Positions 9,022 through 47,197 are shown, numbered from the stretch's first letter. The stretch: 64,000 bases of DNA from an uncultured Fimbriimonadaceae bacterium (GCA_964405335.1 CAYONP010000005.1:9202-73201), one strand, 5' to 3'. Translations and numbers: made by a program. Notes: a model not told the origin generated them from the sequence alone.

Positions 9022-10318
9022 CGATCAGCTCGAGCAACGCAGACGCCGTGCGCTCGGCCGCGCCCCGGCTCGAGTCGACCGCCGCCCGGGCCCGAGAGCC
9101 GGCCGCCGCCAGCTCGGCGGGCGCGTCGAGCAGCGCCAGCGCTTGTTCGGCCAGCTCGCCGGCATCGTGCACGAACCAGAGCGCGCCGGCGCGTTCGAGC
9201 AGCGCCACGCTGTCGCGGAAGTTGGCCACGTGCGGGCCGACCAGCACCGGCTTGCCCTGCGCCGCGGCCTGCATCACATTGCTCCCGCCCAGCGGCTCGA
9301 GCGTCCGGCCGACAAAGACCACCGTCGCCACCGCGTAGAGCTCGCTCAGCTCGCCGATGGTGTCGACCACCACCACCGCCTGCTCGGCCAGCGAGCGAGC
9401 CGCGCGGCCCGGCAGTTCGGTCCGCAGCACCACCGCGTGACCGGCGCGCCGGGCCGCCTCGACCACCTCGGCCGAGCGCTCGATCAGCCGCGGCACGAGG
9501 ATCAGCCGCGCGGCCGGATGCCGCCGCCGCACCGTCTCGAACGCCGCCAGCACCGCCTCGTTCTCCCCCGGCGCGGTACTGCCGGCAAGCAGCACCGGCG
9601 CCTCGGCGGCCAGACCGAGCGTCTTGCGCCACCAGGCCAGCCGGGCGGAATCGACCGTGGGGAACGGCTCGTCGAACTTGACGTTGCCGGCGACGACGAC
9701 CCGCTCGGCCGGCGCGCCGAGCGCGATCAGGCGCTCGCGGTCGAGCGCCGACTGCATCAGGCAACGGTCGAGCTGCGGCAGGAAGGCGCCGTAGAACCAG
9801 CGCAGGCCGAACGAGCGGATCCGCCGCAGTGACCGGTCGGAGATGCGGCCGTTGGCCAGCGCCACGCGCACGCCGGCCGCGCGGCAGCGGCGGATCAGGT
9901 TCGGCCACAGCTCGGTGTCGATCGAGCAGAACAAGTCCGGCCGCAGCGCGGCGATGACCCGATCGACCAGCCAGGGATAGTCGAACGGCACGTAGAAGGT
10001 GCCGGCCAAGCCGGGTAGGCGCGCCGCCAGATCGCCGCCCGAGCGGGTCCAGTGCGAGATGACCAGCACCGCGCCGGGCGCCCGCCGGCGCAGCGCGGCG
10101 ACCAGCGCGCCGGCGGCCTGCACCTCGCCGACCGAGGCGGCGTGGATCCAGATCACCCGCCGGCCGCGGCAGGCGTTGACCAGCGGCGCGGGCAGGCGGC
10201 CGAGACGGTTGAGCCAACCCTCGTGGTGCCGCCGGCGGAGCATCCGCTGCACCTGCCCACCAAGCGCCAAGAGCGGCGCGGCCAGGATCCCGACGACGTT
10301 GTAGAGCAGATAGAACAT
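9014..10318 (-). CDS. waaA: 3-deoxy-D-manno-octulosonic acid (Kdo) transferase
   Basis: IWIHAASVGEVQAAGALVAALR, the GT30 N-terminal signature, and a GT-B C-terminal half. It shares 1 nt with the msbA start. Confidence 0.85.
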   Translation of the reverse strand: MFYLLYNVVGILAAPLLALGGQVQRMLRRRHHEGWLNRLGRLPAPLVNACRGRRVIWIHAASVGEVQAAGALVAALRRRAPGAVLVISHWTRSGGDLAARLPGLAGTFYVPFDYPWLVDRVIAALRPDLFCSIDTELWPNLIRRCRAAGVRVALANGRISDRSLRRIRSFGLRWFYGAFLPQLDRCLMQSALDRERLIALGAPAERVVVAGNVKFDEPFPTVDSARLAWWRKTLGLAAEAPVLLAGSTAPGENEAVLAAFETVRRRHPAARLILVPRLIERSAEVVEAARRAGHAVVLRTELPGRAARSLAEQAVVVVDTIGELSELYAVATVVFVGRTLEPLGGSNVMQAAAQGKPVLVGPHVANFRDSVALLERAGALWFVHDAGELAEQALALLDAPAELAAAGSRARAAVDSSRGAAERTASALLELIDA

Positions 10319-12072
10319 CAGCCGGTCTGACGCGACTGCAGCAGGTAGGCACGCTGGTAGTGACCCGGCAGGCGGAGCAGCTCTTCGTGCCTGCCGGTGG
10401 CGACGATGCGGCCGTGCTCGAGGACCACGATTCGGTCGGCCCGCAGGATGGTGCTCAGCCGGTGGGCGATCATCAGCGTGGTGCGGCCGGCCATCAGCCG
10501 CTCGAGCGCCTCTTGGACCAGCGCCTCGCTCTCGGAATCGAGCGACGAGGTGGCCTCGTCGAGGATCAGCACCCGCGGGTCGCGCAGCACGGCGCGGGCG
10601 ATGGCGATGCGCTGCGCCTGGCCGCCGCTGAGCTTGGCCCCGCGCTCGCCCACCTCGGTCTGGTAGCCGTCGGGCAGCTCGGCGATGAACCCCGCGGCGT
10701 TGGCCACCTCGGCGGCGCGAGCGATCTCGCCGGCCGAGGCACCGGGCCGGCCGAAGGCGATGTTGAACCCGATGCTGCCGCGGAACAGCACCGTCTCTTG
10801 CGGCACAATCCCGAGGTGGCGACGCAGCGAGGCGAGAGTCACCTCGCGCAGGTCGTGGCCGTCGAGCCGAACCGCGCCGGCGGTCGGGTCATAAAGCCGC
10901 GGGATCAGGTTGGCCAGGGTCGATTTGCCGGCGCCGCTCGGTCCGACCACGGCCACGGTCTCGCCCGGCGCCAGCTCTAGGTCGATGTCGCACAGCACCG
11001 GCTCGCCCTGCTGATAGGCGAAGCTGACCCGTTTGAACGTCACCCGACCCTCGACGCTGCCGAGCTCGCCGGCAGCGGGCGCGTCGGCGACGGTGACCGG
11101 TGCGTCGAGCAGCTCGAACACCCGGTCGGCGGCGGTGAGCAGCTCCTCGGCCGCCACCCGCGCCCGGCCGAACTGCTTGAAGTTGGTGGTCATCAGCATC
11201 AGGCCGGTCAGCACACTGACGAACCGCCCGAGTTCGATCGAGCCGTCGCGGTAGAGCAACCAGCCGCCGAGCACGCCGAGCAGCAGCAGCCCGGCCAGGC
11301 CGGTGACATGCACCGTCGGCTCGACAAAGGCGCGCACCCGCACGGTGCGCATCATCGCCCGGCGGGTCTCGAGGTTCTCGGCCTCGAACCGCTCGACTTC
11401 CTGCGGTCCGGCGCCGAAGCACTGGATCACCCGCATGCCGCTGATGCTCTCCTGCAGCCGCGCGCTCAGGTCGGCCAGGGTCGCCTGCACCTGCGCCGTG
11501 TGGCGGCGCATGCGCCGGCCGGCGGCGTTGAGCAGCGGCACCATCACGGCCGCGGTGCCGAACGCGACGAGGGTCAGCGCGACGCTCTGGTAGAGCATGC
11601 CGGCAATGAGCAGCAGGATGGTCAGCGGGCAGCGCGCCAGGCGCGTCAGCTCGACGGTCAGGCGGGTCTGGAGCAGGTTCAGGTCGTTGGTCGCGCGGGA
11701 CATCAAGCCGCCGGTGCGTTCGCCCTCATAAAAGCTGAGCGAGAGCTGGTGGATCTTGGCGAACAGGTCGCGGCGCAGGACGAAGAGAACTTTCTGCGCC
11801 GCGTAATCGAAGCAGAAGTTGCCGCTGAAGTCGGCGATCGCCTGCGCCAGGCCGAGCAGCATCAGCAGGCGGAGCAGCGGGTAGATGCGCTCGAGGTCGA
11901 CACTGCTGCCGCGGGATTCATCGACCAATGGGGCGAGCAGCACCGCCAGGATCGGCTCGGTGGCGGCGCGTACCGCGACGGCGACCAGGGCCACGGCCAG
12001 GATCCAGCGCAGCGGCGTGAAGTAGCCGGCCAGGCGGCGGGCAATCGTGGCGTTCGCCGGCCGGGCCCTCAT
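10318..12072 (-). CDS. msbA: lipid A export ABC transporter, fused permease/ATPase (MsbA-like)
   Basis: Six-TM N-terminal domain. Walker A GPSGAGKST, signature LSGGQAQRIAIARA, Walker B LILDEATSSLD. Position within the lipid A cluster supports MsbA. Confidence 0.8.
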   Translation of the reverse strand: MRARPANATIARRLAGYFTPLRWILAVALVAVAVRAATEPILAVLLAPLVDESRGSSVDLERIYPLLRLLMLLGLAQAIADFSGNFCFDYAAQKVLFVLRRDLFAKIHQLSLSFYEGERTGGLMSRATNDLNLLQTRLTVELTRLARCPLTILLLIAGMLYQSVALTLVAFGTAAVMVPLLNAAGRRMRRHTAQVQATLADLSARLQESISGMRVIQCFGAGPQEVERFEAENLETRRAMMRTVRVRAFVEPTVHVTGLAGLLLLGVLGGWLLYRDGSIELGRFVSVLTGLMLMTTNFKQFGRARVAAEELLTAADRVFELLDAPVTVADAPAAGELGSVEGRVTFKRVSFAYQQGEPVLCDIDLELAPGETVAVVGPSGAGKSTLANLIPRLYDPTAGAVRLDGHDLREVTLASLRRHLGIVPQETVLFRGSIGFNIAFGRPGASAGEIARAAEVANAAGFIAELPDGYQTEVGERGAKLSGGQAQRIAIARAVLRDPRVLILDEATSSLDSESEALVQEALERLMAGRTTLMIAHRLSTILRADRIVVLEHGRIVATGRHEELLRLPGHYQRAYLLQSRQTG

Positions 12073-12863
12073 CGCTCGAGCTGCCGGCCGTTCTTGCCCT
12101 CACGGATCGCGGCCACGAAGTCGAGCAGCTCGACGAGTTCGGCCGGCGGCGACGGCTCGGCGCGGAGCTGCTCGAGCATCTGGCCGCGGTGACCGTGCGA
12201 GAGGTAGAGCAGCCGAATCGCGCGCTGCAGCGCCGCGCGGGCCTCGCTCGTCACCCCGTTCCGCCGCAGACCGACGACGTTGATCCCGCGGACCTTGTTC
12301 GGGTTGCCTTCGGCCAGCGCGAACGGCGGCACGTCGGTGTTGACCCCCGCCAGACCGCTGACCATCGCCATGCGGCCGATGCTCACCTTCTGGTGCACCG
12401 CGGTCATGCCACCGATGACCACCCGATCGCCCAGGTGGCAGTGGCCGCCGATGGTGACCAGATTGGCCAGCATCACGTGGTCGCCGACCTGGCAGTCGTG
12501 GCCGAGGTGGACAAAGCCCATGAGCAGGCAGCCCGACCCGACGCGGGTCACGCCGCCCTCGTGGTTCGAGCGGTGGACGGTCACATTCTCGCGGATCGAG
12601 TTGTCATCGCCAAGTTCGAGGAAGGTCTCGTCGGTGGTGCACTTGAGGTCCTGCGCCGCGCCGCCGAGGATGGCGCCGGTGTCGACGGTGCAGCGGGCGC
12701 CCAGCGTGACCCGGCCGTGGATGGTCGCCCGCGGGCCGATGACGCAGTCGTCACCCAGCCGCGCGCCGGCAAAGACGAGGGCGTAGGCTCCGATGCGGCA
12801 CCGTTCGCCCAGCTCGGCGCCCGGCTCGACGACGGCGGTCGGATGGATCTCGGTCATCGGCAA
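12069..12863 (-). CDS. lpxA: acyl-ACP--UDP-N-acetylglucosamine O-acyltransferase
   Basis: Left-handed beta-helix hexapeptide repeats throughout plus the LpxA C-terminal helical domain (…NKVRGINVVGLRRNG…). ATGA overlap with msbA. Confidence 0.85.
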   Translation of the reverse strand: MPMTEIHPTAVVEPGAELGERCRIGAYALVFAGARLGDDCVIGPRATIHGRVTLGARCTVDTGAILGGAAQDLKCTTDETFLELGDDNSIRENVTVHRSNHEGGVTRVGSGCLLMGFVHLGHDCQVGDHVMLANLVTIGGHCHLGDRVVIGGMTAVHQKVSIGRMAMVSGLAGVNTDVPPFALAEGNPNKVRGINVVGLRRNGVTSEARAALQRAIRLLYLSHGHRGQMLEQLRAEPSPPAELVELLDFVAAIREGKNGRQLER

Positions 12864-12867
12864 CCTG

Positions 12868-13386
12868 CTACTCGCCGTCGGGCCGGATCAGCGCGAACGA
12901 ACCCGTCGCCTTGGCGACCAGCTCACCCTCGACAAAGGCCGACATCTGCGCCCGGCAGTTCAGCGCGCCGCGGAAGAAGCGTGACCGTTCGAGCGTTGCC
13001 TCGAGCCGCAACAGGTCGCCGGGCACCACCGGGCGGCGGAACTTCGCGTCGTCGATGCCGGTGAACAGCGTCAGCCAGTCGCCCGGCGCCACGGCCGACA
13101 TGACCGTCATGCCCGAGACCTGCGCCAGCGCCTCGATGATCAGCACCCCGGGCATCACCGGCCGGCCCGGAAAGTGGCCGGCGAAGAACGGCTCGTTGAC
13201 CGTTACGGCTTTGACCCCCACGGCGCGGGCCGCCGGCTCTAGCTCGATGATTCGGTCGACCATCAGCATCGGCGGCCGGTGCGGCAACAGCCGGCAGATC
13301 CCGGCGACATCCAGCACCCGCCCGGCGTAATGCGCGGCGACGGCTGGATCGGGGTAGAGAAACGTGCGCTCCTCGACTGCCGACAT
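12868..13386 (-). CDS. fabZ: 3-hydroxyacyl-ACP dehydratase
   Basis: LLPHRPPMLMVDRIIELEP…VNEPFFAGHFPGRPVMPGVLIIEALAQ is the FabZ hot-dog signature. I chose the internal Met (MSAVEERTF…) as the start because the upstream 143 aa of the ORF are Arg-rich junk. Confidence 0.8.
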   Translation of the reverse strand: MSAVEERTFLYPDPAVAAHYAGRVLDVAGICRLLPHRPPMLMVDRIIELEPAARAVGVKAVTVNEPFFAGHFPGRPVMPGVLIIEALAQVSGMTVMSAVAPGDWLTLFTGIDDAKFRRPVVPGDLLRLEATLERSRFFRGALNCRAQMSAFVEGELVAKATGSFALIRPDGE

Positions 13387-13466
13387 GACCGCTCCGTGGG
13401 CGCACCCAGAACGCCCTAATCTAGCAGCGCCGCCGGTGGCAGTCAATCGCCGGTGCGCGGCGTGGG

Positions 13467-14039
<573 letters not shown>

Positions 14040-14098: not shown

Positions 14099-17000
14099 TC
14101 ACGGCCCGACGGAGAAGTCGTCCAGCCACCAGGTGGCCAACTGCGGGTTGACCCCCATGCCGGCGTGGCGATACGGCACCGGATCCAGCATGCCGAAGAT
14201 GATCCGCTGGATGGTCAGATCCTCGTTCTCGCCGGCGGCGGCAAAGGCCGCGGCCAGGTCGAACTCGACCGCCCGCCAGGTGTCGTCGGCGCGCGCCTGC
14301 AGGTCGCCCAGCGCGCGGTAGCCGGCCGGTCGCTCCTCGCCGCCGGTGAAGCGCAACTGGTACCAGCGGTCGCGGGCGCGGACATAGGCGTTGAGCGCCA
14401 CGTTCGGCGGCACCTTGTAGCGGAAGCGCAGCCGCGGCCGGTCGCCGAGCCGGAAGTCGTCGCTGACCGCCATCACCCCAAACTCGCCGCCGGTGACCAG
14501 ATTGCTGATCGCCAGTCCGAACTGCCCGGCGGCCGCCTCGCGCTCGCGGCTGATCAGCACGGGGTGCAGCGGGTTGAGGCCGCTGAACTGCCCGATGCCG
14601 CGCTCGAAGTCATTGGCGTAGGTCTGGGCCTCATCGGCCGTGCCATGGTTGGCGGCGGCCAGCAGCGCGCCGGTGTCGACAAACGGCGTGGGGGCCGGCT
14701 CGCGCTCGTACCAGAGCTTCGCCCGCGAGACCATGACGCCGTTCTGCACGGTGTAGAGCGCCGCCTTGCCACTGTCGATCGGGTCGGGATCTTCGACGTC
14801 GAAGAGCACCTTGTCGTCGACCACCGCGAGCAGCCGTCCACCGGCCTTGCGCAGCACCAGGTGGAACCAGTGCCGGTGGAAGTTGCGCGTCCCCTCGTCG
14901 TCGGTGGCGATGTGGGTGAAGTAGCTGTCGCGCGAGTCGTTGCGGCCGATCACCTTGCCGTTCTTGAGCAGCAGCGCGCAGGTGTTGTTCTCGGCGGCGA
15001 ACATCAGCGCATAGCCGCTGGTCACATCGCGCCCGTCGCCGCACAACACGACGCACAGGTCGCTGGCGTTCTCGTACCGGTTCTCGCCGTCGCGGGCCTT
15101 CATTTTGATGGCCATGTAGGCTTCGATTTGCTGATCACCGCCGTAGTCGGCCTTGGTCCAGATCAGGGGGTGCATGTCGAGGTAGCCGCCAAAGAAGCTC
15201 CACCGCGGGTCGCACTTCCACCGGTTGGTGGTCTCCCAGGTGCCCTTGCCGACATGCCAGGCAGTCGGCGCGGTGACGAAGGTCGTGTCGTAGCCGTTCG
15301 GCGTGCCGGCCTCGACGCGATCGAGGTCGACCCGGCCGCCCTGGCGCTGGATGCCGACGCTCCGGCCCGCCTCGGCCTGCGGTCGCTGATCGAACGTGCC
15401 GATCAGATACCGCGCATCGGCGTAGAGGCCGATGAACCGACCGCGGCGCACGAACCGCAGATTGTCTGCGTCACTCAGATCGACCGACGCCTGCGCCGCC
15501 GGCTGGCCGGCGATCTCGAGGCTGAGCAGGCGGTTCGGCTCGCCTTTCGGGTCGCGGGCGATCACCGCGCCGTAGCCGCTGGCGGCGGAGCGGCCGTCGC
15601 CGGCGAGGATGAGCCGCAGCGGGCTGTCGCCCGAGCCGACCAGTCGGGCGTCGACGGTCAGCCAGGCGTCGCCGCAGAACATGCCGCGGTGCCAGACCGT
15701 GCCGTCCTGCTCGGGTGCGGCGTGCCACGAGCCCGACGGCCGGCTCCAGGCGGCCATGGTCTCTTCTTCGGTGAACTGCTCGGTGAACTCGACCGGCCGC
15801 GGCGGCAGGATCTCCTCGACCGTCACGCCGTCGAAGATCACCCGCTCGCCGGCGGCCAGCAGGCCGGCCAGGCCGGCCGAGAGCGACGGGTCGAACGCCT
15901 CCAAGATGCGCTGGCCGCCGATGGCCGCGCCGATCCAGCCGTCTTCGACGGTGAGGTTGAGCCGGTGCCACTCGCCCGCCGGCGGCGCGCCGTCGCGCTG
16001 GACCAGCACCTCTTCGGCGCCGTCGCGCACGCGGATGAGCTGCAGCTTGTCGCGCCACGGCGCCGGTGCGCCGCGCCCGCCCCAGCGCAGCGCCACGTAG
16101 TTGCGCTCGTCGCGGTAGCCGGCCACCAGGCCCGCCCCGGCGCCGGTGGCCACCTTGGCGGTGGTGCCGACCCGCACGTTGCGCCAGGCCGCGTTGCCGC
16201 CCACCAGCAGGCCGGGCGCTCCGTGGTTGGCCACCACGCCGGGGTCGCGTTCACCGGGATTGTCGGCCTCCAGACGCCAGTTGCCGGCCACCGCGCGCCA
16301 GCGGCCGGCGCGCTCGGCGCTGAACGTCTCGACCAGGTCTTCGCTGCCGACAATCGACACGTCGTCGAAGTCGGCGAATTCGACCTGCTCGGCCAGCAGC
16401 CCCACTTCGCCCTGGCCGAGCAGATCAGTCTGCGCCCGGACCGCCACGCGGCCGTCGATCTCGGCCTCGACCACCCCGCCGGTCAGCTCGAGCGCAATCT
16501 CGTACCACTGGTCCTGCTGCCAGCCGCCGTCGTTCTTGGCCAGGACCGTTTTCTGACCATCGACCACCGCCACCAGCCGCCGCTCGCCGCCGCCGCCGCC
16601 GGCCGCCTGCCACTCGAACGCGAGGTAGGTCTTGTCGTCGCGCAGGTAGCCGGCCAGGCCAACCAGCCCGCTGCCCTTGGCCCGCACCGCCGCGCGGGTC
16701 CGGTAGCGGTCCCAGAACCAGTAGCCGGTGGTCGCCAACGCGCCGTCGCGGGTTTCGGTGGCGCGGTAGGCAAACGGGTTGCTGCTCTTCGTCGCGTCGG
16801 GCTGCTTGTCGCCGAAGCCGTCCTCCTGCGACACCCCGCTGGCCGTCCAGGTACCGCTCAGTGTGCGCCAACTGCCGCGCGCCTCGCCCGCGCGCATAAA
16901 ATCGTCGGTGAACCAGACCGTCTCGGTCGGCTGCAACTGCACCGCCTCGAGCCTGACCGCGGCCGCCGCGCTGCCGACAAGCACGCGGCCCGGAGCGAAC

Positions 17001-18472
17001 TGCTCGTCGCCGACCACCAGCCGCTCGCGGTCGTCGGTCAAGACGCGGATCGCATGCCGGTCGCGCTGCACCGTGATGGTCGAGCCGGCGCCGAGTGCCG
17101 CGGCCGACTCGGCCAGCACCTGGTCCTGATCGGGCCCGCGGTGGCGAATGAGGCGCAGGCGGTTCGGCTCGGCCAGCAGCACGTAGCCCGAGTGCGCGGT
17201 GTCGACATCGAACGCAATGCCCGCGCGCGCGCCGCGCGGCCACTCGCCGTCGGGCGCCAGGCGGAAGCGAACCTTGTACTGCTCGGGCGCCTGCTCGGCC
17301 ACCACGGTGACCGGCCGCTCGCCGGCGAGCAGTTCGGCCAGGGCCAGCTCGCGCTGCGCCTCGACGCGCCAGGCATTCGGGTCGTCGGCCCCGCGGAAGG
17401 CGTAGAGATGGCCGTCGAGCGAGGCGACATAGAGCATGCCCGCCCCGAGCGCCGGCGGCCACATGATGCCCGAGAGCAGGGCCGGCTCCTGGACCGCGGC
17501 CGGCGTCCAGGTCGAGATCACCTTGCCCGTCTCGAGCAGCACCGTCGCGACGGTACCGTCCTTGCCACCCAGGAAGCCGAACGGCCCGATGGTCAGCGGC
17601 GGCGCCGCCACCGGCGCCGAGCGCGGAATGGCCAGTCTGCGCCGGCCGGTCGCGGTGTCGAGGCCGTAGAGATGGCCGTCGCTCGAGCCGAAGTAAAGCA
17701 CACCGTCGCGGACGACCATCGGCGACCAGTTCGAGGTCTGGTCGACCGGCGCGGCGGCGGCCTCGGGCGTGTAGCGCCAGCGCTCCTTGCCGTCGGCAAG
17801 GGCGAGGGCGTAGACCGTGTCGTCGGGCAGCTTGAGATAGACCGTCTCGCCCTCGACCAGGGGTTTCGAGTCGACGATGCCGTCGGCAGGGAACTGCCAG
17901 ATCGCGTCGCCCGTCGCGGCGTCCAGCACGTGGAGCCGCCGGTCGTACGACGGGACGTAGAGCCGGCCCTGGTGCTCGGTGATCGCTGAGCCGATCCGGC
18001 CCTCACACTGGTACTGCCAGCGCGGCGAGCCGTCGGCGCGGTTCAGCCCGACCACCAGACCGCTGTCGCCCATGCCGACGATCACCGTCTCGCCGCTGAC
18101 CACCGCGCCGGCGTAAATGACCGTGCCGACCTGCTGAGTCCACCGCTCGGCGCCCGAGCCGGCGTCGAGCGCGGCGACCATGCCGTTGTCGGCGGTGGCG
18201 TAGACGATGCCATCGGCGATCACCGGCTGGCCATAGACCCGGCCGCCCAGGTCGCGTTGCCAACGCACCTCGCCGCTGCGCGCGTCGACGGCGTAGAGGT
18301 GGTTGTCGCGCGAGCCGGCATAGACCAACCCGCCGGCGACCGTCGGCGTGGCGTAGAAGCCGAACTCGGCCTCGAGCTGCCAGGCGAGCTGCAGCGGCGG
18401 ATAGACCGGCTGCTGAGCGAGGGCAAGCGGTCCGCAGACCAGCAACAACGCGGACCAGCGAGGCCAGGTCAT
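14099..18472 (-). CDS. giant secreted protein: N-terminal PQQ-type beta-propeller followed by multiple concanavalin/LamG (DUF1080-like) jelly-roll domains (1457 aa)
   Basis: Start at internal Met MTWPRWSALLLVCGPLALAQQ (signal peptide, GGGAG RBS). The upstream 204 aa of the ORF are Arg-rich junk. Repeated PQQ blades (LYAVDARSGEVRWQ, VYATADNGMVAALDAGSGAERW, …). The C-terminal G-x-W-x(n)-DG jelly-roll repeats recur at least 5 times. Confidence 0.7.
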   Translation of the reverse strand: MTWPRWSALLLVCGPLALAQQPVYPPLQLAWQLEAEFGFYATPTVAGGLVYAGSRDNHLYAVDARSGEVRWQRDLGGRVYGQPVIADGIVYATADNGMVAALDAGSGAERWTQQVGTVIYAGAVVSGETVIVGMGDSGLVVGLNRADGSPRWQYQCEGRIGSAITEHQGRLYVPSYDRRLHVLDAATGDAIWQFPADGIVDSKPLVEGETVYLKLPDDTVYALALADGKERWRYTPEAAAAPVDQTSNWSPMVVRDGVLYFGSSDGHLYGLDTATGRRRLAIPRSAPVAAPPLTIGPFGFLGGKDGTVATVLLETGKVISTWTPAAVQEPALLSGIMWPPALGAGMLYVASLDGHLYAFRGADDPNAWRVEAQRELALAELLAGERPVTVVAEQAPEQYKVRFRLAPDGEWPRGARAGIAFDVDTAHSGYVLLAEPNRLRLIRHRGPDQDQVLAESAAALGAGSTITVQRDRHAIRVLTDDRERLVVGDEQFAPGRVLVGSAAAAVRLEAVQLQPTETVWFTDDFMRAGEARGSWRTLSGTWTASGVSQEDGFGDKQPDATKSSNPFAYRATETRDGALATTGYWFWDRYRTRAAVRAKGSGLVGLAGYLRDDKTYLAFEWQAAGGGGGERRLVAVVDGQKTVLAKNDGGWQQDQWYEIALELTGGVVEAEIDGRVAVRAQTDLLGQGEVGLLAEQVEFADFDDVSIVGSEDLVETFSAERAGRWRAVAGNWRLEADNPGERDPGVVANHGAPGLLVGGNAAWRNVRVGTTAKVATGAGAGLVAGYRDERNYVALRWGGRGAPAPWRDKLQLIRVRDGAEEVLVQRDGAPPAGEWHRLNLTVEDGWIGAAIGGQRILEAFDPSLSAGLAGLLAAGERVIFDGVTVEEILPPRPVEFTEQFTEEETMAAWSRPSGSWHAAPEQDGTVWHRGMFCGDAWLTVDARLVGSGDSPLRLILAGDGRSAASGYGAVIARDPKGEPNRLLSLEIAGQPAAQASVDLSDADNLRFVRRGRFIGLYADARYLIGTFDQRPQAEAGRSVGIQRQGGRVDLDRVEAGTPNGYDTTFVTAPTAWHVGKGTWETTNRWKCDPRWSFFGGYLDMHPLIWTKADYGGDQQIEAYMAIKMKARDGENRYENASDLCVVLCGDGRDVTSGYALMFAAENNTCALLLKNGKVIGRNDSRDSYFTHIATDDEGTRNFHRHWFHLVLRKAGGRLLAVVDDKVLFDVEDPDPIDSGKAALYTVQNGVMVSRAKLWYEREPAPTPFVDTGALLAAANHGTADEAQTYANDFERGIGQFSGLNPLHPVLISREREAAAGQFGLAISNLVTGGEFGVMAVSDDFRLGDRPRLRFRYKVPPNVALNAYVRARDRWYQLRFTGGEERPAGYRALGDLQARADDTWRAVEFDLAAAFAAAGENEDLTIQRIIFGMLDPVPYRHAGMGVNPQLATWWLDDFSVGP

Positions 18473-18504
18473 GTCACCACGCTCCCGGACGATCTGGATG
18501 GCGC

Positions 18505-21500
18505 TCAGCGGACGACGAGAATCCGCGTCACACGGCTGACCGCGCCGTTGGGCGACAACACCTCGGCCTCGAGGCGATAAACACCGTGCGGCACCGGCCG
18601 GCCATGCGCGTCGCGGCCATCCCATTGGAGGCTGACGACCCGCCCGGCGGACAGGTTCCGCGCCACCGCGTCGACCGCCTGGCCGCCCAGACCGCGCACC
18701 GTCACGTTGACCAGGCCCGGCTCGCTCAGGTTCAGCCGGATGCGCGTCACGCCACCGCGGCCGGGAGCCGCCTCGAGGTTGGCAATCTCCGAGCGCGCCA
18801 GCCGACCGAGCCGCGCGACGAGCTCGAAGCGCCGCTCCTCGCCCGCCCGGCCGGGCGTGTAGACATAGCTGCTGCGGGTGTTCAGCAAGACCGTCGTCTG
18901 GCTCTGCAGGTCGCGCAGCTCGACGATCCAGCCGGGCGGCGCCTGGCGGCCGAACGACGGCCAGCTCAGCGTCACCGCCGCGCCGTCGCGGCTGGTCACG
19001 CTGGCCTGCCAGACCTCCTCGGCCGGACCGGCCGGCCGCAGTTCGCCGGCCAGGCGGGTCGGCCCATCGCGCAGGAACGACCACTCGACCGCCGGCGCCG
19101 CACCCGCTTCAGGCGGCGTCTCGATGGCCAGCGTCTCGGTCAGGCTGCTGCTCAGCCCGAACAGGTTGCCCGCGTCGACTCCGCTCTCGCTGCTCGCCGT
19201 CAAGCCGACCGTCCAGCTCCCCTCTTCCTGCCGCGCCCTCGACCGGCTGACGCCGCCGAGCGGCTCGGGCACGACCAGACTGACGCCGTCACGCAGCGCC
19301 TTGAGCCACAGCCCGGCCTGCGTCGGCAGGGCCGGCAGCAGCGACTCGAAGCCCGGTCGCGTGGTGTCGAAGATGAGCAGTGGAGTGAGTCGGCCGCGCG
19401 GATAGGTCCAGCCGTAGGGCAGCACCGTGCTGGTCCACAGCTCCTGGTCGGCCAGCGTGCCGACGCGCTGCTCATCGACCCGCACTTCGATCGCCTCCAG
19501 GTCCCAGACCAGCGCGTCGAAGAACGGGTTGGCCATCTGGTTCCAGCCCATCTGGAGCGGCAGCTCGTATGGACCCGGTCGTCGCAGGTCGCCGAGGAAG
19601 CGGATCCGTTGCGGTTCGGGTGAGAGCGCCCAGACGCCGTGGCCGGAAGGCAGGATCAGCCGGCCGGCGAGCGACTCGTACCGCTCGGTCTCGGGATTGA
19701 AGCGCAACACCTGCAACGGTCCGCGACCGGTCAGGAGCTGGATGCCCTGCTGGTTCAGGTCGATTGGCAGGCCGAAGAAGCTCGGCCCGGCCGGCAGGTT
19801 GAGGTCGGCAAAGGCGCGCACCTCGAGCGTGACCGGATCGAGCGGCACATCCTGCACCATCACCTGCAGCTCGTGCCGGCCTGGGTCGCGGCTGGTCACC
19901 CGGATGACGAACTGCCCGTCGCGATCGCTCGGCCCGCCGAGCGAGAGCACGTCGACCTGGCCGGCGCCGCTCCCACCCAGCACCCGCAGATCGGGCGGCG
20001 AGCCGATGATCGGTTGATCGAGCGCATTGCGCAGGGTCACCTGAATGGCCGCCTGCTCGGTCCCATCGCCGGCGATCTGCTCGGGCTGGAGGCCCACCTT
20101 GGAGCGCAGCGGGTCGATCACGCTCGACGGGGCAAAGGCCAGCCGGGGCCGGTCGTCGAGCAGTACATCGACCACCTTGACGCCGACCATGAAGGCGACC
20201 GGCTCACCCAGGCTCTCGATGAACGCCGTCGTCTTCCCGTCGGCGTCGGTCGGCTCGACCGGGTCGAAGATCCGCACCATCGGCGCCGCGTCGGGGTTGA
20301 CGAACACATCGACGAAGGTATGCGACAGGCCGGTGACCGGCGCATCGCGATCGTCGCGGACGAAGATGTTGAGCATGAACCGCTGCCCGACCTCGGCCGG
20401 CAGCACCAGCGGATCGACCACGATGCGCGAGTTGCTTGGGTCGATCACCGGCCCGTCGTCGGGCGGCTCGCGGAACTCGGCGGTGGGCTTCTGGGTCAGC
20501 GGCTGGCCGACGTTGCGCACCTCGACGGTGAAGGTGACCGGCTCATCGGAGCTGAGAAAACCGCGCGTGATGCCGGCCGAGTCGGTCACGGTGGTCGGCT
20601 GCTGCACCGTCACCACCCCCTGGCCCGGCGGCTGCGGGAGGATCTCGAAGTCACTTCCGGGCAGGCCGGGGATCGGGTTGCTGAACCGGTCGAGCGCGGT
20701 GATCCGGACGGTCGTCTGGCTCACCCCGTCGGCATCCTGCACCAGCGGGTTGACCACCACCAGGCTGCGGTCGCGATCGAGCGGGCCGGGTAGGATGTTG
20801 AACAGATTGCTGGTCGCTTCGAACGGCCCGACGCCGAACACCTGCGGCAGAGTCGCCTTCAGCGAGTAGCCGTCGCCGGACCGGCGGAGGAGGAGATTCG
20901 TGAAGCGCGCGGTGCCGCGGTTCAGGTCCGCGCTCAGGTCGCCGAACAGCGTGGCGCCGGTCGGATTGTCGGACAGGCCGACGATCAACGACTGGCCGCT
21001 GAGCGGGACCAGGCGGCCCGCGGCGTCGAACAGACTGACCGATGGCGCGGGGTCAAACGTATCGCCGGCGACGGTGTTGCCCTGCAGCGTGACGAACTGA
21101 AGCTGGGTCGGCGGGCCGGTGACCAGTGTGTTGCCGCCGAACTCCGAGGTACCGTCGGCGCCGATGGTCGCCGTGCTGGTCAGAAAGTCGCCCGGGTCGA
21201 GGCTGCCCCGCGGGACGGTGAACCGGAAGCGGTTGGTCGTGTCGGTGCCCTGGTTCAGACCGTTGAACGGGTTGGGGTAGCTGCCGGTGCCCGAGTCGCT
21301 GTCGTCGACCGAACCCTCGAGCTGCGTGCCGACGAAGCTGATGCCGCCGCCGAACCCGGTGCCCGGCGCCTCGTAGAGGCTGACCGCCGAGCCGGGCCGG
21401 GCGAACCCGGCGACGATCAAGTCGGTGCCGGCAACCACCGCGAAGTCGATCACCGGGAAGTTGAGCAGGTTGTTCGCCCCGGTGTCGGCGTCGCCGGGAT

Positions 21501-23748
21501 CGTTGCGCGTGGTGCCGTTCGGGTTCTGCGTCCCGCCGTCGAGGTTGATGTTCAGCAGGTTGTTGCCGCTAACCAGGTTGCGCAGGAAGACATTGCTCAC
21601 CCCGGCGTCGTTGGCGCCGTAGATGCCGCTACCGCTGTTGTTGCCGATCAAGTTGCCGCTGCCCGCGGCGGTCCCGCCGATCAGGTTCCGGTTCGCGCCA
21701 TTGCCGAGCAGAATGCCGTGCTGCCCGTTGCCGCGCGGGGTCTGCCGGTCGCCGGCCAGGCCGATCACGTTGCCGCTGATGGTGTTGCCGACGGCAACCG
21801 GCTCAAGCAGCCGGATGCCGTCGCGGCCGTTGCCCGAAATGCAGTTCCCGCGCACCTGGTTGCCGGCGGCGCCACCGGCGAGGTGTACGCCTTCGTCGGC
21901 GTTCGGCAGCACATTGTTGAAGGCGCCGTCGAGGCCGATCGAGTTGCCGGTGATCAGGTTGTCGTTGGCGCCGATCACCTCGACGCCGATCCGATTGCCG
22001 CTGATCACGTTGAACTGGCCCGCGCCGGTGCCGCCGATGGTGTTGTTGTTCGGCCCATTGAAGATGCGCACGCCGGCGAACTGGTTGCCCAGCGCGGCGG
22101 TGCCCCCGACGTTGGTGCCGATGAAGTTGCCCTGCAGCAGGTTGTTGTTCGAGTTATCGGTGATCGAGACGCCGAACCCGTCATTGCCGCCGATCACCGA
22201 GTTGAGCACGTTGACGTTTTGTGTGTTGAGCAGGTGTACGCCGTTCCCGAGGTTTGGGAAAGCGCTCGAGCCACCCGTGTTGGTCCCGATGAAGTTGCCG
22301 TCGAGACTTCCGCCGTCGTGGCCGTTGATCAGGATGCCGCTCGCCCGGTTGGCGCTGATGGTGCTGTTCGTGATGGTCAGACCCGAACCGCCTGCGGCGC
22401 CGACGCCCAGGCCGTCGTTCGGCAGCGGCGCGGTGCCGCCGGTGGCCATGCCGACCGTCGAGTCGGTGATCGACGGGTTGACCACGCTGTCGAAGAACAG
22501 ACCGTTCGAGTTGTTGCCGCTGACCGTCGAGTTTGAGATGGTGACGTTGCTGCTGTTCGCCACTCGGACCCCGTCGCCGCCGTTGGGCACGGCGCCGGTG
22601 CCGGCCAGGTTGGTGCCCAGCCGGCTGGTGTTGATGGTCAGGCTGAAGCCGTTGTCCATGAACACGCCGGTGCCGGTGTTGCCGCTGATGGTCGAGTTGG
22701 TGATGGTCACCTGACCCGAGTCCTGCAGCGCCACGCCCTCGCCGTTGTTCGGCAGCGCCGCGTCGGTGGTGCCGTTGGTGCCGATCCGGCTGTCGTTGAT
22801 CGCGATGGTCGAGGTGGAGCTGAACCTGACCCCGGGAGCGCTGTTGCCGCTGACAGTCGAGTTGGTGATGGTCACGTTGCCGGCGTTCTGGATCAGCAGC
22901 CCGCCGGTGTCGTTGGCGATGCCCGCCGTGCCAGCGGCGTTGGTGCCGAGCTTGCTGTTCTGGATGGTCAGGATCGACGAGCCGTCGCCTTCGATGCCGC
23001 GCCCACCGTTGCCGCTGATCACCGAGTTGGTGATGGTCGTGGTGAAGGTGTTCTGGATCCTAATCCCGCCGGCCGCGTTGCCCTCGTCGCTGGTCCCGGC
23101 GCGGTTGGTGCCGATCCGCGCGTTGATGATGTCGTTGCCGTTGCCGGCGTTGACGATCAGCGCTCCGAACTGACCGTTGCGCGAGAGCACCAGCCCCTCA
23201 TTGGCACCCGGCCCACCGAGGTTGTTGTTCGCCGCGCCATTGAACAGCATCACGCCGTTGATGGCGTTGGTCTCGACGATCACCGTCCCGCCCGGACCGG
23301 GCCGGACACCGCTGAACACGTTGATGATATCGTTGCCGTCGGAGCCGTTGATCACCAGCCCGTTGCCCTGGAAGTTGGCGATGGCAATACCGCTCACGAC
23401 GTTGTTGTCGGCGGCCAGGTGCAAGCCGTCGCCGGTCCCCGCCGCGGCGCCGTTGAGGATGATCAGCGGCTCACCCGAGAAGCCCGGCTGGCTCTGGCCG
23501 TCGATCGTCAGCGGGTCGTTGATCTGAGGTAGTGGCGAGAGCAGGTTGAAGAACTGCGTGCCGGTGCCGACGCTGAACGTGATCATGTCGGCGCCGGTGT
23601 TGGCGTTGGCGCTGATGATCGCCTCGCGCAACGACCCGCCGCCGGCGTCGTTGGTGTTGGTCACCACGAAGTTCGCTGCACCGGCGGGTAGAGCAGCCGC
23701 CAGCAGCAGCACGGCGCAGCGGCGAACGAGGCGGGTCCCATCCAACAT
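18505..23748 (-). CDS. giant secreted right-handed parallel beta-helix repeat protein with CSLREA-type N-terminus, Big-like middle region and FlgD-Ig-like C-terminal domain (1747 aa)
   Basis: Signal peptide MLDGTRLVRRCAVLLLAAALPAGAA, then VVTNTNDAGGGSLREAIISANA (CSLREA motif). There are more than 25 PbH1-like repeats (…ITNSTISGN…). C-terminus WDGRDAHGRPVPHGVYRLEAEV (FlgD Ig-like). An alternative start 15 codons upstream (23793) is possible. Confidence 0.75.
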   Translation of the reverse strand: MLDGTRLVRRCAVLLLAAALPAGAANFVVTNTNDAGGGSLREAIISANANTGADMITFSVGTGTQFFNLLSPLPQINDPLTIDGQSQPGFSGEPLIILNGAAAGTGDGLHLAADNNVVSGIAIANFQGNGLVINGSDGNDIINVFSGVRPGPGGTVIVETNAINGVMLFNGAANNNLGGPGANEGLVLSRNGQFGALIVNAGNGNDIINARIGTNRAGTSDEGNAAGGIRIQNTFTTTITNSVISGNGGRGIEGDGSSILTIQNSKLGTNAAGTAGIANDTGGLLIQNAGNVTITNSTVSGNSAPGVRFSSTSTIAINDSRIGTNGTTDAALPNNGEGVALQDSGQVTITNSTISGNTGTGVFMDNGFSLTINTSRLGTNLAGTGAVPNGGDGVRVANSSNVTISNSTVSGNNSNGLFFDSVVNPSITDSTVGMATGGTAPLPNDGLGVGAAGGSGLTITNSTISANRASGILINGHDGGSLDGNFIGTNTGGSSAFPNLGNGVHLLNTQNVNVLNSVIGGNDGFGVSITDNSNNNLLQGNFIGTNVGGTAALGNQFAGVRIFNGPNNNTIGGTGAGQFNVISGNRIGVEVIGANDNLITGNSIGLDGAFNNVLPNADEGVHLAGGAAGNQVRGNCISGNGRDGIRLLEPVAVGNTISGNVIGLAGDRQTPRGNGQHGILLGNGANRNLIGGTAAGSGNLIGNNSGSGIYGANDAGVSNVFLRNLVSGNNLLNINLDGGTQNPNGTTRNDPGDADTGANNLLNFPVIDFAVVAGTDLIVAGFARPGSAVSLYEAPGTGFGGGISFVGTQLEGSVDDSDSGTGSYPNPFNGLNQGTDTTNRFRFTVPRGSLDPGDFLTSTATIGADGTSEFGGNTLVTGPPTQLQFVTLQGNTVAGDTFDPAPSVSLFDAAGRLVPLSGQSLIVGLSDNPTGATLFGDLSADLNRGTARFTNLLLRRSGDGYSLKATLPQVFGVGPFEATSNLFNILPGPLDRDRSLVVVNPLVQDADGVSQTTVRITALDRFSNPIPGLPGSDFEILPQPPGQGVVTVQQPTTVTDSAGITRGFLSSDEPVTFTVEVRNVGQPLTQKPTAEFREPPDDGPVIDPSNSRIVVDPLVLPAEVGQRFMLNIFVRDDRDAPVTGLSHTFVDVFVNPDAAPMVRIFDPVEPTDADGKTTAFIESLGEPVAFMVGVKVVDVLLDDRPRLAFAPSSVIDPLRSKVGLQPEQIAGDGTEQAAIQVTLRNALDQPIIGSPPDLRVLGGSGAGQVDVLSLGGPSDRDGQFVIRVTSRDPGRHELQVMVQDVPLDPVTLEVRAFADLNLPAGPSFFGLPIDLNQQGIQLLTGRGPLQVLRFNPETERYESLAGRLILPSGHGVWALSPEPQRIRFLGDLRRPGPYELPLQMGWNQMANPFFDALVWDLEAIEVRVDEQRVGTLADQELWTSTVLPYGWTYPRGRLTPLLIFDTTRPGFESLLPALPTQAGLWLKALRDGVSLVVPEPLGGVSRSRARQEEGSWTVGLTASSESGVDAGNLFGLSSSLTETLAIETPPEAGAAPAVEWSFLRDGPTRLAGELRPAGPAEEVWQASVTSRDGAAVTLSWPSFGRQAPPGWIVELRDLQSQTTVLLNTRSSYVYTPGRAGEERRFELVARLGRLARSEIANLEAAPGRGGVTRIRLNLSEPGLVNVTVRGLGGQAVDAVARNLSAGRVVSLQWDGRDAHGRPVPHGVYRLEAEVLSPNGAVSRVTRILVVR

Positions 23749-25205: not shown

Positions 25206-28187
25206 TCAACGCACGCGCACCACGATCACCTCATCGGGCCCCAGTCGGCCGACCAGTCGCCGGCCCTCCAGCCGGAGCGACGAGCCCGCGCCGGCGTAGA
25301 GCAAGCGCGACTCGCGCGCGCCCAGCTCGGCGTCGAGCTCGATGGTCGTCGTCCGGTCGCCGCCAGCGGCGTTGAAGACCGTCAGGTAGACCGCGCCCCG
25401 CGCGGGATCGCCGTAGCGCTCGAGCCACACCTCGTCGCGATCGCCGCGGGCCAGCGTGAGCGGCTCCCAGCCGGCGGCGGCGAGCTCGCGGATGACCGGG
25501 ATGACGCGCTCGAACAGCGGCCGGTCGCGCTGGTACAACGTGGCGTTGTGCCAGTACGGGTCGTCGGCGGCGTTGTGGCTGAAGAAGCTGGGAAAGACCG
25601 CGTAGAACAGGCAGCGCTCGAAGTAGCGCGTGACCCACTCGGGCCGGAAGCGTGAGTAATCGGTGTTGAGCAGCAGGCAGTAGGGCTTCTGCCGGCACAT
25701 CGCGCGGCGGAACAGCATGTCGGCGTCGCTGTTCGGCTGATACTCACCGCCCGGAGCCCAGTCGGTCTCGATCCCGAGGACATCGAACAGCGGCGCCGCC
25801 GCGGCGAAGCGGCCGAGCACCGCGTTGGCGAAGAAGAGCCTGTCGCGCCCGTGGAGATCGTCGGCCATGGCGCGGCAGAACTCCCAGGTGTGCTGGAACC
25901 CGTAGGCGCAGACCTGCTTGCCGGCGGTCGTGTAGAGCAGCGGCAGGTCCATGACGCGCCAGTGCTCGCGACGATGGTTCGGCGTCGTCGCGGCCATCTC
26001 GAACGAGTCGATGTAGACGCCGTCGAGCTGCGGCGCGACGCCCTCGAAACGCGTCTCGAACCCGGGGTTGGCGAGCAGGTTCTCGCCACCCTCCTCGCGC
26101 AGCTCGACCTGGTCGAACCAGACCGTGCCGCGGTGGCCGCCGCGCAGCAGCAGGTGGAGCGAGACGCTGCGCACCGGCTTGGTCGGCTCGACCCGCACCT
26201 CGACGCGCTGCCAATCGCGCGCAGCGGGATCGAACGGCGCGACTTGGCCATAGAGCGGCGTGCCGTCGACGTGGCTCAGGTCGAGGTAGAGCGAGAAGTC
26301 GTTGTCCGCCTCGCCGGTGACGCCCTCGGCGCGGCACCAGGCGCTGGCCACGATCGGCCGCGGCTCGGTCTGGTCGAGCACCACACTCTGCCGCGCGCCC
26401 GCGCCGGCCTCGGTCGTGCGGGTGCAGCGGATGGCGCCACTGCCCACGAGGCCGGCGGCCGGCTCGGCGACAAAGCCCGCCTCCCACGCCGCCCAGCCGC
26501 TCAGCACCGGCCGGTCGGCGCGGGCGAAAGCCGCGTCGACGATCGACTGGTTCTGATCGGCTTGGGTCCAGCCCGCGTCGCCACGGGGCAGCTTCGGATC
26601 GGGGTTGGCGATCCACAGCGCACCATCGGACCAGGGCGCGTCGACGAGATGCCCGACCAGCTCACCGGCAGCGGTGTGGAAGCCCGACGAGAGCGCCGCC
26701 CGGGCGTTTCGCCGGCGCGCATGGCCGTCGTCGGCAGCCTCGGCCGTGAGCTGCGCCAACGCCGCCGCGGCGGTGCGCGGCGTCTCGGGCGGCATCGACA
26801 TCCAGTAGCTCATCGGCTCGATGTAGACGAAGCTGTCGATGCCCTGCGCCTCGTCGAACGGCACGTTGTTGTCGCCCTCGTGGAACTGGAAGCCGAAGCT
26901 GGCGTGGTTCTGCACCGTGCTGATGTCGGTGAACGGCATCCAGATGCCCTCGCGCGTGACCCGCTTGACGAACAGCTCCGAGTGCAGGTCGTAGTACCGC
27001 TGTAGCGCGGCGCGGAAGCCCCATTCGGGCTCGAAGCGGTAGAGCAGCAGCGAGAAGCTCGCCTCGCCGGGGGTGCGGCTGTCCTGGCTCAGGCCGAGGT
27101 CGAGGCTGGCGAACAGCTCGGCCGTGTCGGCGTTGTAGCCGAGGCGCACATGCTGGGGCCGGTCGAGCCGATAGCCGATCGCCAGCCCACGCGTTGCCGA
27201 CCAGGCGGCGGCGCAGGGATAGCGGCTCATCGAGCCGGTCGCGCCGAGGCCGGTCTCGACCGGGTTCAGATACTCGCCCTCGGCAATCGGCCGGGTGGTG
27301 CGCGGATCGTCGCCCCACTGTCCGCCGCGCAGGTCGACCGCGATCGGCCAGGTGATCGTGATTGCCCGGTCGGCGCCGGTCGTGTCGCGGACGGTGCCCT
27401 CCAAGCGGACCAGACCGGCCTCCATGGTCAATGTCTGCCTCAGCTCGAGACCGAGTTCGGCGCAGGTGCCGTGGAGCAGGTCGGGCTCCGGCTCCTGGTC
27501 GCGCACGTAGTGCGGGACAAGGAAGTCGCTGCCGGCGGCCACGTCGCGGAGCTGCAGCCGGTAGGTCAGCCAGTCGATCTCCTCGGCCGGCGGCGCGAGC
27601 AGCTCGGCCGGCCGTTCGATCGCCACGCCGTCGAAGCTCACCGCGCCGGCCGGCAGGTCGAGCTGCTTGAGGCTGAAGTCGTCGAACCAGACCACGCCGC
27701 GGTGTCCGCGAAAGAGGCCGTAGAAGGTCAGCCGCGCAATCGGCTTGGACGGCACCAGGCTGACCTCACGGTACTCCCAGTCGTGCGTGCCGACACTGAA
27801 GTTGGCCGTCTGGCCCCACAGGTGCGTGCCGTCGGCATAGTCGATGTCGACGTAAAGGCTGTAGCCGCTGGTCGGACTGCCGTCGACGCCCTCGGCGCGG
27901 CTCCACCCGCCGGCGACCACCGGCAGCGGCCTGATCTGGTTCAGCTCGACCGTCTGTGCGGCGCCGCGCTGCTCGTGTTCGTCGGTCGAGGCACAGCGCG
28001 CGCCGCGACCGGTGCGCCCCTCGTCGACCAGCTCGTAGCCGAGCTCCCACGGCTGCCAGCCCTCGTCGCCGGCGGTGAACGAGCCGTTGCGGGCCAGCTC
28101 GCGGGCGTTCGCGTCGGCGCGGATCACTCGCTTGGCCACCGTCGACGCCGGCGCGGCCAAGAGCGCGGCCAGCAGGCAGGCGATCAT
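25206..28187 (-). CDS. large secreted protein with two CBM-like beta-sandwich modules each followed by a catalytic-like domain (993 aa)
   Basis: Signal peptide MIACLLAALLAAPAST with GGGAGGA RBS. Internal duplication: NGSFTAGDEGWQPWELGYEL… and NPGFETRFEGVAPQLDG… each precede a DFSLY(V/L)D(I/L) block. Confidence 0.6.
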   Translation of the reverse strand: MIACLLAALLAAPASTVAKRVIRADANARELARNGSFTAGDEGWQPWELGYELVDEGRTGRGARCASTDEHEQRGAAQTVELNQIRPLPVVAGGWSRAEGVDGSPTSGYSLYVDIDYADGTHLWGQTANFSVGTHDWEYREVSLVPSKPIARLTFYGLFRGHRGVVWFDDFSLKQLDLPAGAVSFDGVAIERPAELLAPPAEEIDWLTYRLQLRDVAAGSDFLVPHYVRDQEPEPDLLHGTCAELGLELRQTLTMEAGLVRLEGTVRDTTGADRAITITWPIAVDLRGGQWGDDPRTTRPIAEGEYLNPVETGLGATGSMSRYPCAAAWSATRGLAIGYRLDRPQHVRLGYNADTAELFASLDLGLSQDSRTPGEASFSLLLYRFEPEWGFRAALQRYYDLHSELFVKRVTREGIWMPFTDISTVQNHASFGFQFHEGDNNVPFDEAQGIDSFVYIEPMSYWMSMPPETPRTAAAALAQLTAEAADDGHARRRNARAALSSGFHTAAGELVGHLVDAPWSDGALWIANPDPKLPRGDAGWTQADQNQSIVDAAFARADRPVLSGWAAWEAGFVAEPAAGLVGSGAIRCTRTTEAGAGARQSVVLDQTEPRPIVASAWCRAEGVTGEADNDFSLYLDLSHVDGTPLYGQVAPFDPAARDWQRVEVRVEPTKPVRSVSLHLLLRGGHRGTVWFDQVELREEGGENLLANPGFETRFEGVAPQLDGVYIDSFEMAATTPNHRREHWRVMDLPLLYTTAGKQVCAYGFQHTWEFCRAMADDLHGRDRLFFANAVLGRFAAAAPLFDVLGIETDWAPGGEYQPNSDADMLFRRAMCRQKPYCLLLNTDYSRFRPEWVTRYFERCLFYAVFPSFFSHNAADDPYWHNATLYQRDRPLFERVIPVIRELAAAGWEPLTLARGDRDEVWLERYGDPARGAVYLTVFNAAGGDRTTTIELDAELGARESRLLYAGAGSSLRLEGRRLVGRLGPDEVIVVRVR

Positions 28188-30965: not shown

Positions 30966-31011
30966 GACTCACTCCGCGGGGAGTTTTGGCCGGCCCGAGG
31001 CGGCTTCCCTC

Positions 31012-40187: not shown

Positions 40188-40260
40188 GCGGCGGCGAGGA
40201 GTTGTCCGGCAGGACGCGAAGAGCGGCCGGCGAACGGGTGAGACACGAAGCTAGGAGCGG

Positions 40261-41538: not shown

Positions 41539-41547
41539 GAGGTTGGC

Positions 41548-43953: not shown

Positions 43954-43954
43954 G

Positions 43955-45474: not shown

Positions 45475-45792
45475 CTATTCTGTGGCGTCCGCCGGCGGCG
45501 CGTCCGCCCGCCGCGCCGCGATGAGGCCTCCGATCAGCACGATCAGCAGGTAGACCGCGCCGATCGGCCCGAACAACAGCGCCCAGATGCCGCCGAGATT
45601 GTCCATCGAGCGCGGCTTGCTCCAACTGGCCAGCAGCGCGGCATAGGCCAGCACGCCCGGCAGCAGCGGGATGAACGCCGCGGTGCGCCAACCGCCGCGG
45701 AGCACGAACAGGGTCACCGCCTGCAGCACCGGCCAGGCGCAGATCAGCACCGCGGCGAGGTAGACGATAGGCGACGTGTCCTGGTCGCTCAT
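45475..45792 (-). CDS. small 3-TM membrane protein, unknown family (paralog A)
   Basis: MSDQDTSPIVYLAAVLICAWPVLQAVTLFVLRGGWR… The ATG overlaps the TGA of the upstream Gfo/Idh/MocA gene (ATGA). Confidence 0.55.
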   Translation of the reverse strand: MSDQDTSPIVYLAAVLICAWPVLQAVTLFVLRGGWRTAAFIPLLPGVLAYAALLASWSKPRSMDNLGGIWALLFGPIGAVYLLIVLIGGLIAARRADAPPADATE

Positions 45793-47027: not shown

Positions 47028-47197
47028 GGGGCGGCTCCCGGTATGTGGTTCGCGGTGGCATGGCGGTGCCCTGCCTGGTTCCGCGGAGGTCGACCGTCTC
47101 GGTCGACGTGGCCTGGGACGGCTGTCCGGCGCCGACCGGGACGGTCGGCCTACGCAGCATCACGGGTCGGCCGACCCGGAAACCGCCACCCCTGTCC

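Follow-up and report, generated by a model that had tools for sequence, protein, structure and literature searches.

Two adjacent genes for large exported proteins

We analyzed a 64,000-nucleotide stretch of bacterial DNA (CAYONP010000005.1:9202-73201, hereafter the window; ~72% GC), in which two long open reading frames (ORFs) on the minus strand fill positions 14099–23748. The first, gene A (18505–23748, minus strand), codes for an exported, adhesin-like protein of 1747 amino acids with a beta-helix and immunoglobulin (Ig)-like domains. The second, gene B (14099–18472, minus strand), follows after a spacer of 32 nucleotides (18473–18504) and codes for an exported protein of 1457 amino acids, in which a BamB-like propeller precedes a module of six jelly rolls. 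A first-pass annotation of the window had described two consecutive giant genes of these lengths and this spacing, which the ORFs confirm, and had taken their products for a two-component cell-surface or secreted machine; it recognized no named system, and we agree.

The starts of A and B were placed at the first in-frame ATG with a signal-peptide-like sequence after it. Third-position GC is 0.88–0.91 in both genes, as is usual for real genes in the window, and we therefore regard them as genuine coding regions. Two long antisense ORFs inside gene A (window 21623–22714 and 22715–23173, both plus strand) have a high third-position GC as well; they are the shadow ORFs expected of a high-GC, repeat-rich gene and not separate genes. 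No paralogue of A or B was found elsewhere in the window.

Both N-termini, read by eye from the translations, show the basic n-region, hydrophobic core, and A-x-A site of a Sec-type signal peptide. That of A is MLDGTRLVRRCAVLLLAAALPAGA, followed by AN (residues 1–24, 23677–23748, minus strand, predicted cleavage between AGA and AN), and that of B is MTWPRWSALLLVCGPLALA, followed by QQ. A GGAG-type Shine-Dalgarno-like motif precedes both ATGs, the one ahead of the B ATG being a GGGAG within the spacer, in line with the Sec signal and ribosome-binding site that had been ascribed to each gene. The term "secreted" was nevertheless over-stated: export across the inner (cytoplasmic) membrane is what can be read from these signals, and either protein could end up in the periplasm, at the outer membrane, or in the medium. 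The scan for promoters and terminators gave nothing informative on A and B, and an Rfam scan of the window returned nothing.

Protein A: a beta-helix, an Ig-like stalk, and a rare tail

The N-terminal part of A (residues ~60–760, 21469–23571, minus strand) is a right-handed parallel beta-helix. The Pfam model Beta_helix (PF13229) matches it in three stretches with 117.9 bits (gathering threshold 25.9), NosD matches with 52 bits, and some homologues carry the annotation "parallel beta-helix repeat" or "CSLREA domain-containing" protein. We estimate ~26–28 coils between residues ~100 and ~740, in keeping with the more than 25 repeats counted previously, and these follow a regular 55-residue super-repeat of 23 + 32 residues (ITNSTxSGN... 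/ IxxSxIGTN...PNxGxGV...). More than 900 homologues align with this part of A at 31–39% identity over ~700 amino acids. They are giant modular proteins with varied C-terminal domains, including cadherin, Calx-beta, FG-GAP, and DUF11, and this variety of fusions places the beta-helix of A in a class of modular surface proteins.

As Beta_helix and NosD are members of a clan in which polysaccharide lyases and hydrolases abound, and as a GH95 gene and an apiosidase-like gene lie nearby, A might instead be a polysaccharide-degrading enzyme with a pectate-lyase, GH28, or NosD-like fold. We hold this to be highly improbable. The super-repeat runs regularly over ~640 residues with no obvious insertion or loop typical of active-site clefts, a sequence search of the PDB with A gave no enzyme match, and the domains fused to the helix in the homologues are typical of adhesins.

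Between the signal peptide and the helix, residues 32–44 (23617–23655, minus strand) read TNDAGGGSLREAI and resemble the CSLREA motif, with a Gly in place of the Cys. The motif reported by the first-pass annotation is therefore there in outline, but it fails the NCBIfam model TIGR04214 (9.9 bits, E 0.64, cut-off 25). That model, CSLREA_Nterm, spans 27 residues including the conserved Cys and gave 113.6 bits for the homologue P0074, used as a positive control. The motif of A is a degenerate look-alike. In its signal peptide, its xSLREA motif, and its long helix of IGTN...PN.G.GV-type coils, A is like the CSLREA/parallel beta-helix giant proteins of Planctomycetota and other metagenome-assembled genomes (MAGs) (TIGR04214 plus PF13229); it differs from them in the Gly for Cys, in the failure of the curated model, and in its C-terminal ~990 residues, an Ig-like stalk and a tail that belong to A, P0068, P0187, and, in part, the protein of locus L025.

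One CSLREA-domain protein, from Acinetobacter, is an exoprotein dependent on the type II secretion system (PMC9245377), and by analogy a type II-like export route is plausible for A. Two other routes left no trace in the models searched. The C-terminal sorting domain of the type IX secretion system (Por_Secre_tail PF18962/TIGR04183) was absent at E ≤ 0.01 from the Pfam and NCBIfam scans of A and B, and for two-partner secretion neither A nor B nor any of the neighbours scanned showed a Haemagg_act/TPS domain or a ShlB/POTRA match.

Behind the helix comes a run of Ig-like domains (residues ~840–1310). Within it, a Big_1/Invasin_D3 domain (residues 995–1092, 20473–20766, minus strand) is above threshold for both models (Invasin_D3, PF09134, 42.2 bits against 33; Big_1, PF02369, 38.4 bits against 34.9), which bears out the Big-like middle domains proposed earlier, and residues 1212–1303 give a sub-threshold Filamin match in Pfam. 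The AlphaFold model of the C-terminal 988 residues is all-beta and poor, with a mean predicted local distance difference test (pLDDT) of 61 and values below 50 for residues ~1310–1575. Its confident parts resemble the Ig strings of invasin (1cwv), FdeC (4e9l), and InvD (5ldy) in Foldseek, as generic Ig matches only. A is thus like the Big_1 stalks of invasin, intimin, and FdeC both by Pfam and by Foldseek, the latter on this low-confidence model, but it has a beta-helix at its N-terminus and neither the inverse-autotransporter beta-barrel nor the LysM anchor of those proteins.

The C-terminal module of A (residues ~1361–1747, 18508–19668, minus strand) ends in an FlgD-Ig-like domain (residues 1672–1730). 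The first-pass annotation had described the end in this way, and the FlgD_ig score (PF13860) is marginal, its 26.8 bits falling just short of the 27 required; the PDB search adds a weak FlgD match (E 0.032), and PF13860 is included in the precomputed Pfam list for a protein identical to A. Matches to the C-terminal 988 residues are far rarer than those to the helix and consist, beyond generic Ig-domain matches, of P0068, P0187, and part of the L025 protein. P0068 is the orthologue of A (86% identical), and P0187, in locus L003, is the sole distant full-length homologue (37% identity), with a GSLRQA motif, a beta-helix, and the C-terminal module. At L025:2747-4165 (plus strand), on a metagenome contig of ~51% GC, a 473-amino-acid protein resembles the last ~390 residues of A alone; because of this standalone version, we consider the tail, with its FlgD-Ig-like domain, to be a separable module.

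Comparison with the orthologue (L001:585-5825) gave 86% identity overall and 74–76% in residues 1–100 and 801–1000, against 93–95% for the flanking genes. This higher divergence is consistent with the faster evolution that an exposed surface protein might undergo. Taken together, A would be an adhesin-like surface protein, with the beta-helix as a shaft, an invasin/Big_1-type Ig stalk, and a lineage-specific tail that ends in the FlgD-Ig-like sandwich.

Protein B: a propeller fused to a widespread six-jelly-roll module

The first domain of B (residues ~25–420, 17213–18400, minus strand) is the BamB-like beta-propeller that the first-pass annotation had named. PQQ_2 (PF13360) gives 161 bits for a threshold of 27.6, and the sequence matches in the PDB include BamB (E ~1e-21) and designed propellers. 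The fold family is therefore that of BamB (YfgL) and the other PQQ_2 propellers. B was rejected as BamB itself: it scores 153.6 bits for TIGR03300 (cut-off 285.2) and 104.3 for PRK11138 (cut-off 423), and BamB is a lipoprotein of ~390 amino acids, whereas B has 1457, lacks a canonical lipobox, and carries its propeller joined to a 1037-amino-acid module. It was likewise rejected as a pyrroloquinoline quinone (PQQ)-dependent dehydrogenase, with 70.5 bits for TIGR03075 (cut-off 480) and 37.1 for TIGR03074 (cut-off 832). Scores so far below both sets of cut-offs argue for a propeller that serves as a non-catalytic scaffold.

The remainder of B (residues 421–1457, 14102–17212, minus strand) is this 1037-amino-acid module. 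AlphaFold, run with a 91-sequence alignment, returned six beta-sandwich domains at a pLDDT of 93 and a predicted template modelling (TM) score of 0.93, and the module is confidently modelled as six ConA-like jelly rolls of the DUF1080/CBM66, DUF6250, and LamG types. The AlphaFold model, the comparison of the family profile with the PDB, and the fold searches agree with the previous call of at least five LamG/DUF1080-type domains. In B itself the ConA-like domains stay under the Pfam thresholds, including that of DUF1080 (PF06439, threshold 26.8), and CBM66 is reached by the family profile in the PDB with an E of 3e-14. Domain 3 (residues ~713–887, 15812–16336, minus strand) is CBM66/DUF1080-like. 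Domain 5 (residues ~1060–1257, 14702–15295, minus strand) is DUF6250-like: it gives 17.6 bits for PF19763 (threshold 26.9), and the homologous domains of P0259 and P0275 give 42.5 and 39 bits, respectively. It is also the best-conserved part of B, with invariant or near-invariant columns and the motifs RWxCxPxWSFFGG, CGDGxDxxSGY, and FHRHWF.

Domains of these kinds are known singly or in pairs, as in the CBM66 of the B. subtilis levanase (4AZZ/4B1M), BT2157, and BT3469 (4JQT), whereas B has six of them in one conserved, rigid unit. Fold searches found no full-length analogue of the module (TM ≤ 0.17), and the PDB matches cover single domains only. The top Foldseek matches, the LamG-type jelly-roll arrays of neurexin-1 alpha (multi-LNS) and laminin LG domains, show a likeness of domain class only (TM 0.12, ~10% identity) and imply neither homology nor a functional parallel.

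An exhaustive HMMER search with residues 421–1457 against clusters at 50% identity retrieved 1667 cluster representatives at E < 1e-3, 625 of them at E < 1e-30. Most members are 900–1100 amino acids long, begin with a leader-like sequence, and are colinear with the whole module, from which we conclude that it is one conserved and mostly standalone unit. Fusion to a propeller is rare (P0216, P0221, L006, and L007); other members carry two PA14 domains, which are glycan-binding, a Y_Y_Y domain, or an extra DUF1080. The genome-locus scan, which started from an 8-sequence alignment and two peptide patterns and under-samples the family, yielded 21 loci, of which 18 have an Armatimonadota-type label and two belong to Planctomycetota.

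B would thus be a rare fusion of a BamB-like propeller, acting as an interaction scaffold, with one copy of a widespread six-jelly-roll module, and the module would most likely bind glycans and may process them. Such a role is plausible from the domain homology and from the fusions of its relatives (PA14, extra DUF1080, CBM66-like). In Planctomycetes, DUF1080, which overlaps the non-catalytic CBM66, is over-represented (PMC5673643), and the proteins with this domain include 3-keto-glycoside lyase/hydratases (bioRxiv 10.1101/2024.03.25.586180; PMC8121099).

The module could, on the other hand, be an enzyme of a new carbohydrate-active family, with its catalytic centre (a glycosidase, a lyase, or an activity like that of 3-keto-glycoside lyase/hydratases) in the DUF6250-like domain 5 or in a domain of DUF1080 type, and with the other jelly rolls as carbohydrate-binding modules. 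The strongly conserved charged and aromatic residues of domain 5 could point to an enzyme rather than a binder, but both in structure and in sequence the module matches the non-catalytic CBM66 best, we identified in it neither the catalytic motif of GH16 nor that of any known lyase, and the GFO/IDH/MocA genes of the window are so abundant in these phyla that their association with B is weak. We regard an enzymatic module as possible, though rather unlikely. A more elaborate scheme, which we would call speculative and distinctly unlikely, has the family consist of rigid extracytoplasmic proteins in which the invariant Arg, Cys, Trp, and Asp of domain 5 make up a new active site for glycans, perhaps for 3-keto-glycosides supplied by GFO/IDH/MocA proteins, and in which, in this lineage, the propeller of B anchors the module to a partner in the envelope, for example A.

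Neither Pfam nor NCBIfam has a model for the 1037-amino-acid unit as a whole, and no multi-domain counterpart with a solved structure was found; we propose the unit as a candidate to be defined as a family and tested biochemically. With more than 1600 clusters and no name, this family is the element of the locus that merits follow-up, within the poorly understood DUF1080/DUF6250 complement of Armatimonadota and Planctomycetota; the paper on Fervidibacter (Armatimonadota) makes no mention of these domain types.

The gene pair in relatives and its surroundings

Outside the window, the A-B pair was seen in the close relative L001 alone, where the spacer is 33 nucleotides, the same divergent gene lies upstream, and the identities are 86% for A, 95% for the N-terminus of B, and 93% for the upstream gene. 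A phmmer screen (E < 1e-5) of the ±10 kb around each of the 21 B-family genome loci found no ORF that resembles A in its beta-helix or its tail; L006 and L007, the candidate orthologues with the propeller fusion, are among these loci. The closest homologue of B lies in L002, a contig of an Armatimonadota MAG that was outside the phmmer screen; the Pfam calls of eight genes in the 10 kb upstream contain no beta-helix family, and the gene directly upstream codes for a TIR/MshEN protein. From the side of A, the gene after P0187 in L003 is of the prepilin type and is not B, and no B is near the standalone tail of L025. The genes around the B family share no conserved context either: in a Pfam census of 99 of them, GFO/IDH/MocA appeared in only five.

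The first-pass annotation had itself named as a refutation that the two genes are never co-located in relatives. Apart from one close relative, this is essentially what the loci show, and co-location in several independent lineages, the mark of a conserved two-gene system, was not observed. We therefore depart from the first-pass annotation on the two-component machine, that is, a dedicated and co-transcribed apparatus for binding or processing glycans at the cell surface in which, for instance, the propeller of B would dock on A or on the outer membrane. Its appeal lies in the shared strand, the 32-nucleotide gap, the retention of arrangement and spacing in L001, and the fact that both proteins are exported and contain carbohydrate-related domain classes. 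The synteny with L001 has little weight at 86–95% identity, however, and the genes are unpaired in every more distant relative examined, so that we judge a dedicated machine to be quite improbable.

We favour, with moderate confidence, the view that A and B are large multidomain proteins of the envelope or the extracellular space of a diderm, each exported by Sec and each functioning independently of the other, and that in this lineage their genes happen to be adjacent and are probably co-transcribed. Several points weigh against independent function and against a purely binding B. The same-strand spacing kept in L001 fits an operon and some functional link in the lineage. The loss of the pairing at 37–45% identity is compatible with a lineage-specific partnership, and the sampling of close relatives is thin, with no cluster representative of B between 50% and 90% identity. 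Gene structure, domain content, family sizes, and the lack of a conserved pairing were observed directly; the export route and final location, the glycan ligand, the co-transcription, and any catalysis are predictions. The conserved residues of domain 5 could make B an enzyme. As a pair, the genes change no picture; glycan-degrading Armatimonadota and Planctomycetota commonly have large exported beta-helix/Ig proteins, and multi-DUF1080 proteins too.

The prepilin-type gene after P0187 (L003:15500-15563, plus strand) begins with MRQRGFTLIELLVVI, a prepilin-type N-terminal methylation motif. Two of the 99 neighbours of B-family genes in the census likewise code for N_methyl proteins.

Immediately after B, in the same orientation, comes a TMEM175-like potassium channel gene, followed by a cluster for lipid A and lipopolysaccharide export (FabZ, LpxA, MsbA, KdtA, and LpxK), the whole spanning window positions 7933–14039 (minus strand). 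This cluster indicates that the organism is a diderm. The sole sigma-70-like promoter match of the region (13446–13418) lies between the TMEM175 gene and fabZ. The host is most likely a member of the Armatimonadota, given the taxonomy of the B-family loci and the Armatimonadota label of the contig that carries P0002.

Upstream of A lie a divergent DUF6298/apiosidase-like gene, a 993-amino-acid gene without a Pfam match, a GFO/IDH/MocA gene, a DUF7305 gene, and a GH95 gene, and farther upstream are two more GFO/IDH/MocA genes, a ThuA-like gene (window 43919–44818), and a gene for a HEAT-repeat protein (41539–43953). The three GFO/IDH/MocA genes are at 29769–30968, 40255–41538, and 45789–47159. 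With GH95, the apiosidase-like DUF6298, the three GFO/IDH/MocA genes, and ThuA, the surroundings in the window are glycan-oriented. The set of GFO/IDH/MocA, ThuA, and HEAT genes recalls the 3-keto-glycoside (ThuAB-type) pathways of sugar oxidation, which elsewhere work with DUF1080 enzymes.

The 993-amino-acid protein (25206–28187, minus strand) was compared with the B module and is not a paralogue of it. A homologue of this protein (L009:8173-11763, plus strand; 35% identity over 160 amino acids and 29% over 215) lies directly downstream of a B-module gene, which hints weakly at a possible functional link between its family and the jelly-roll family.

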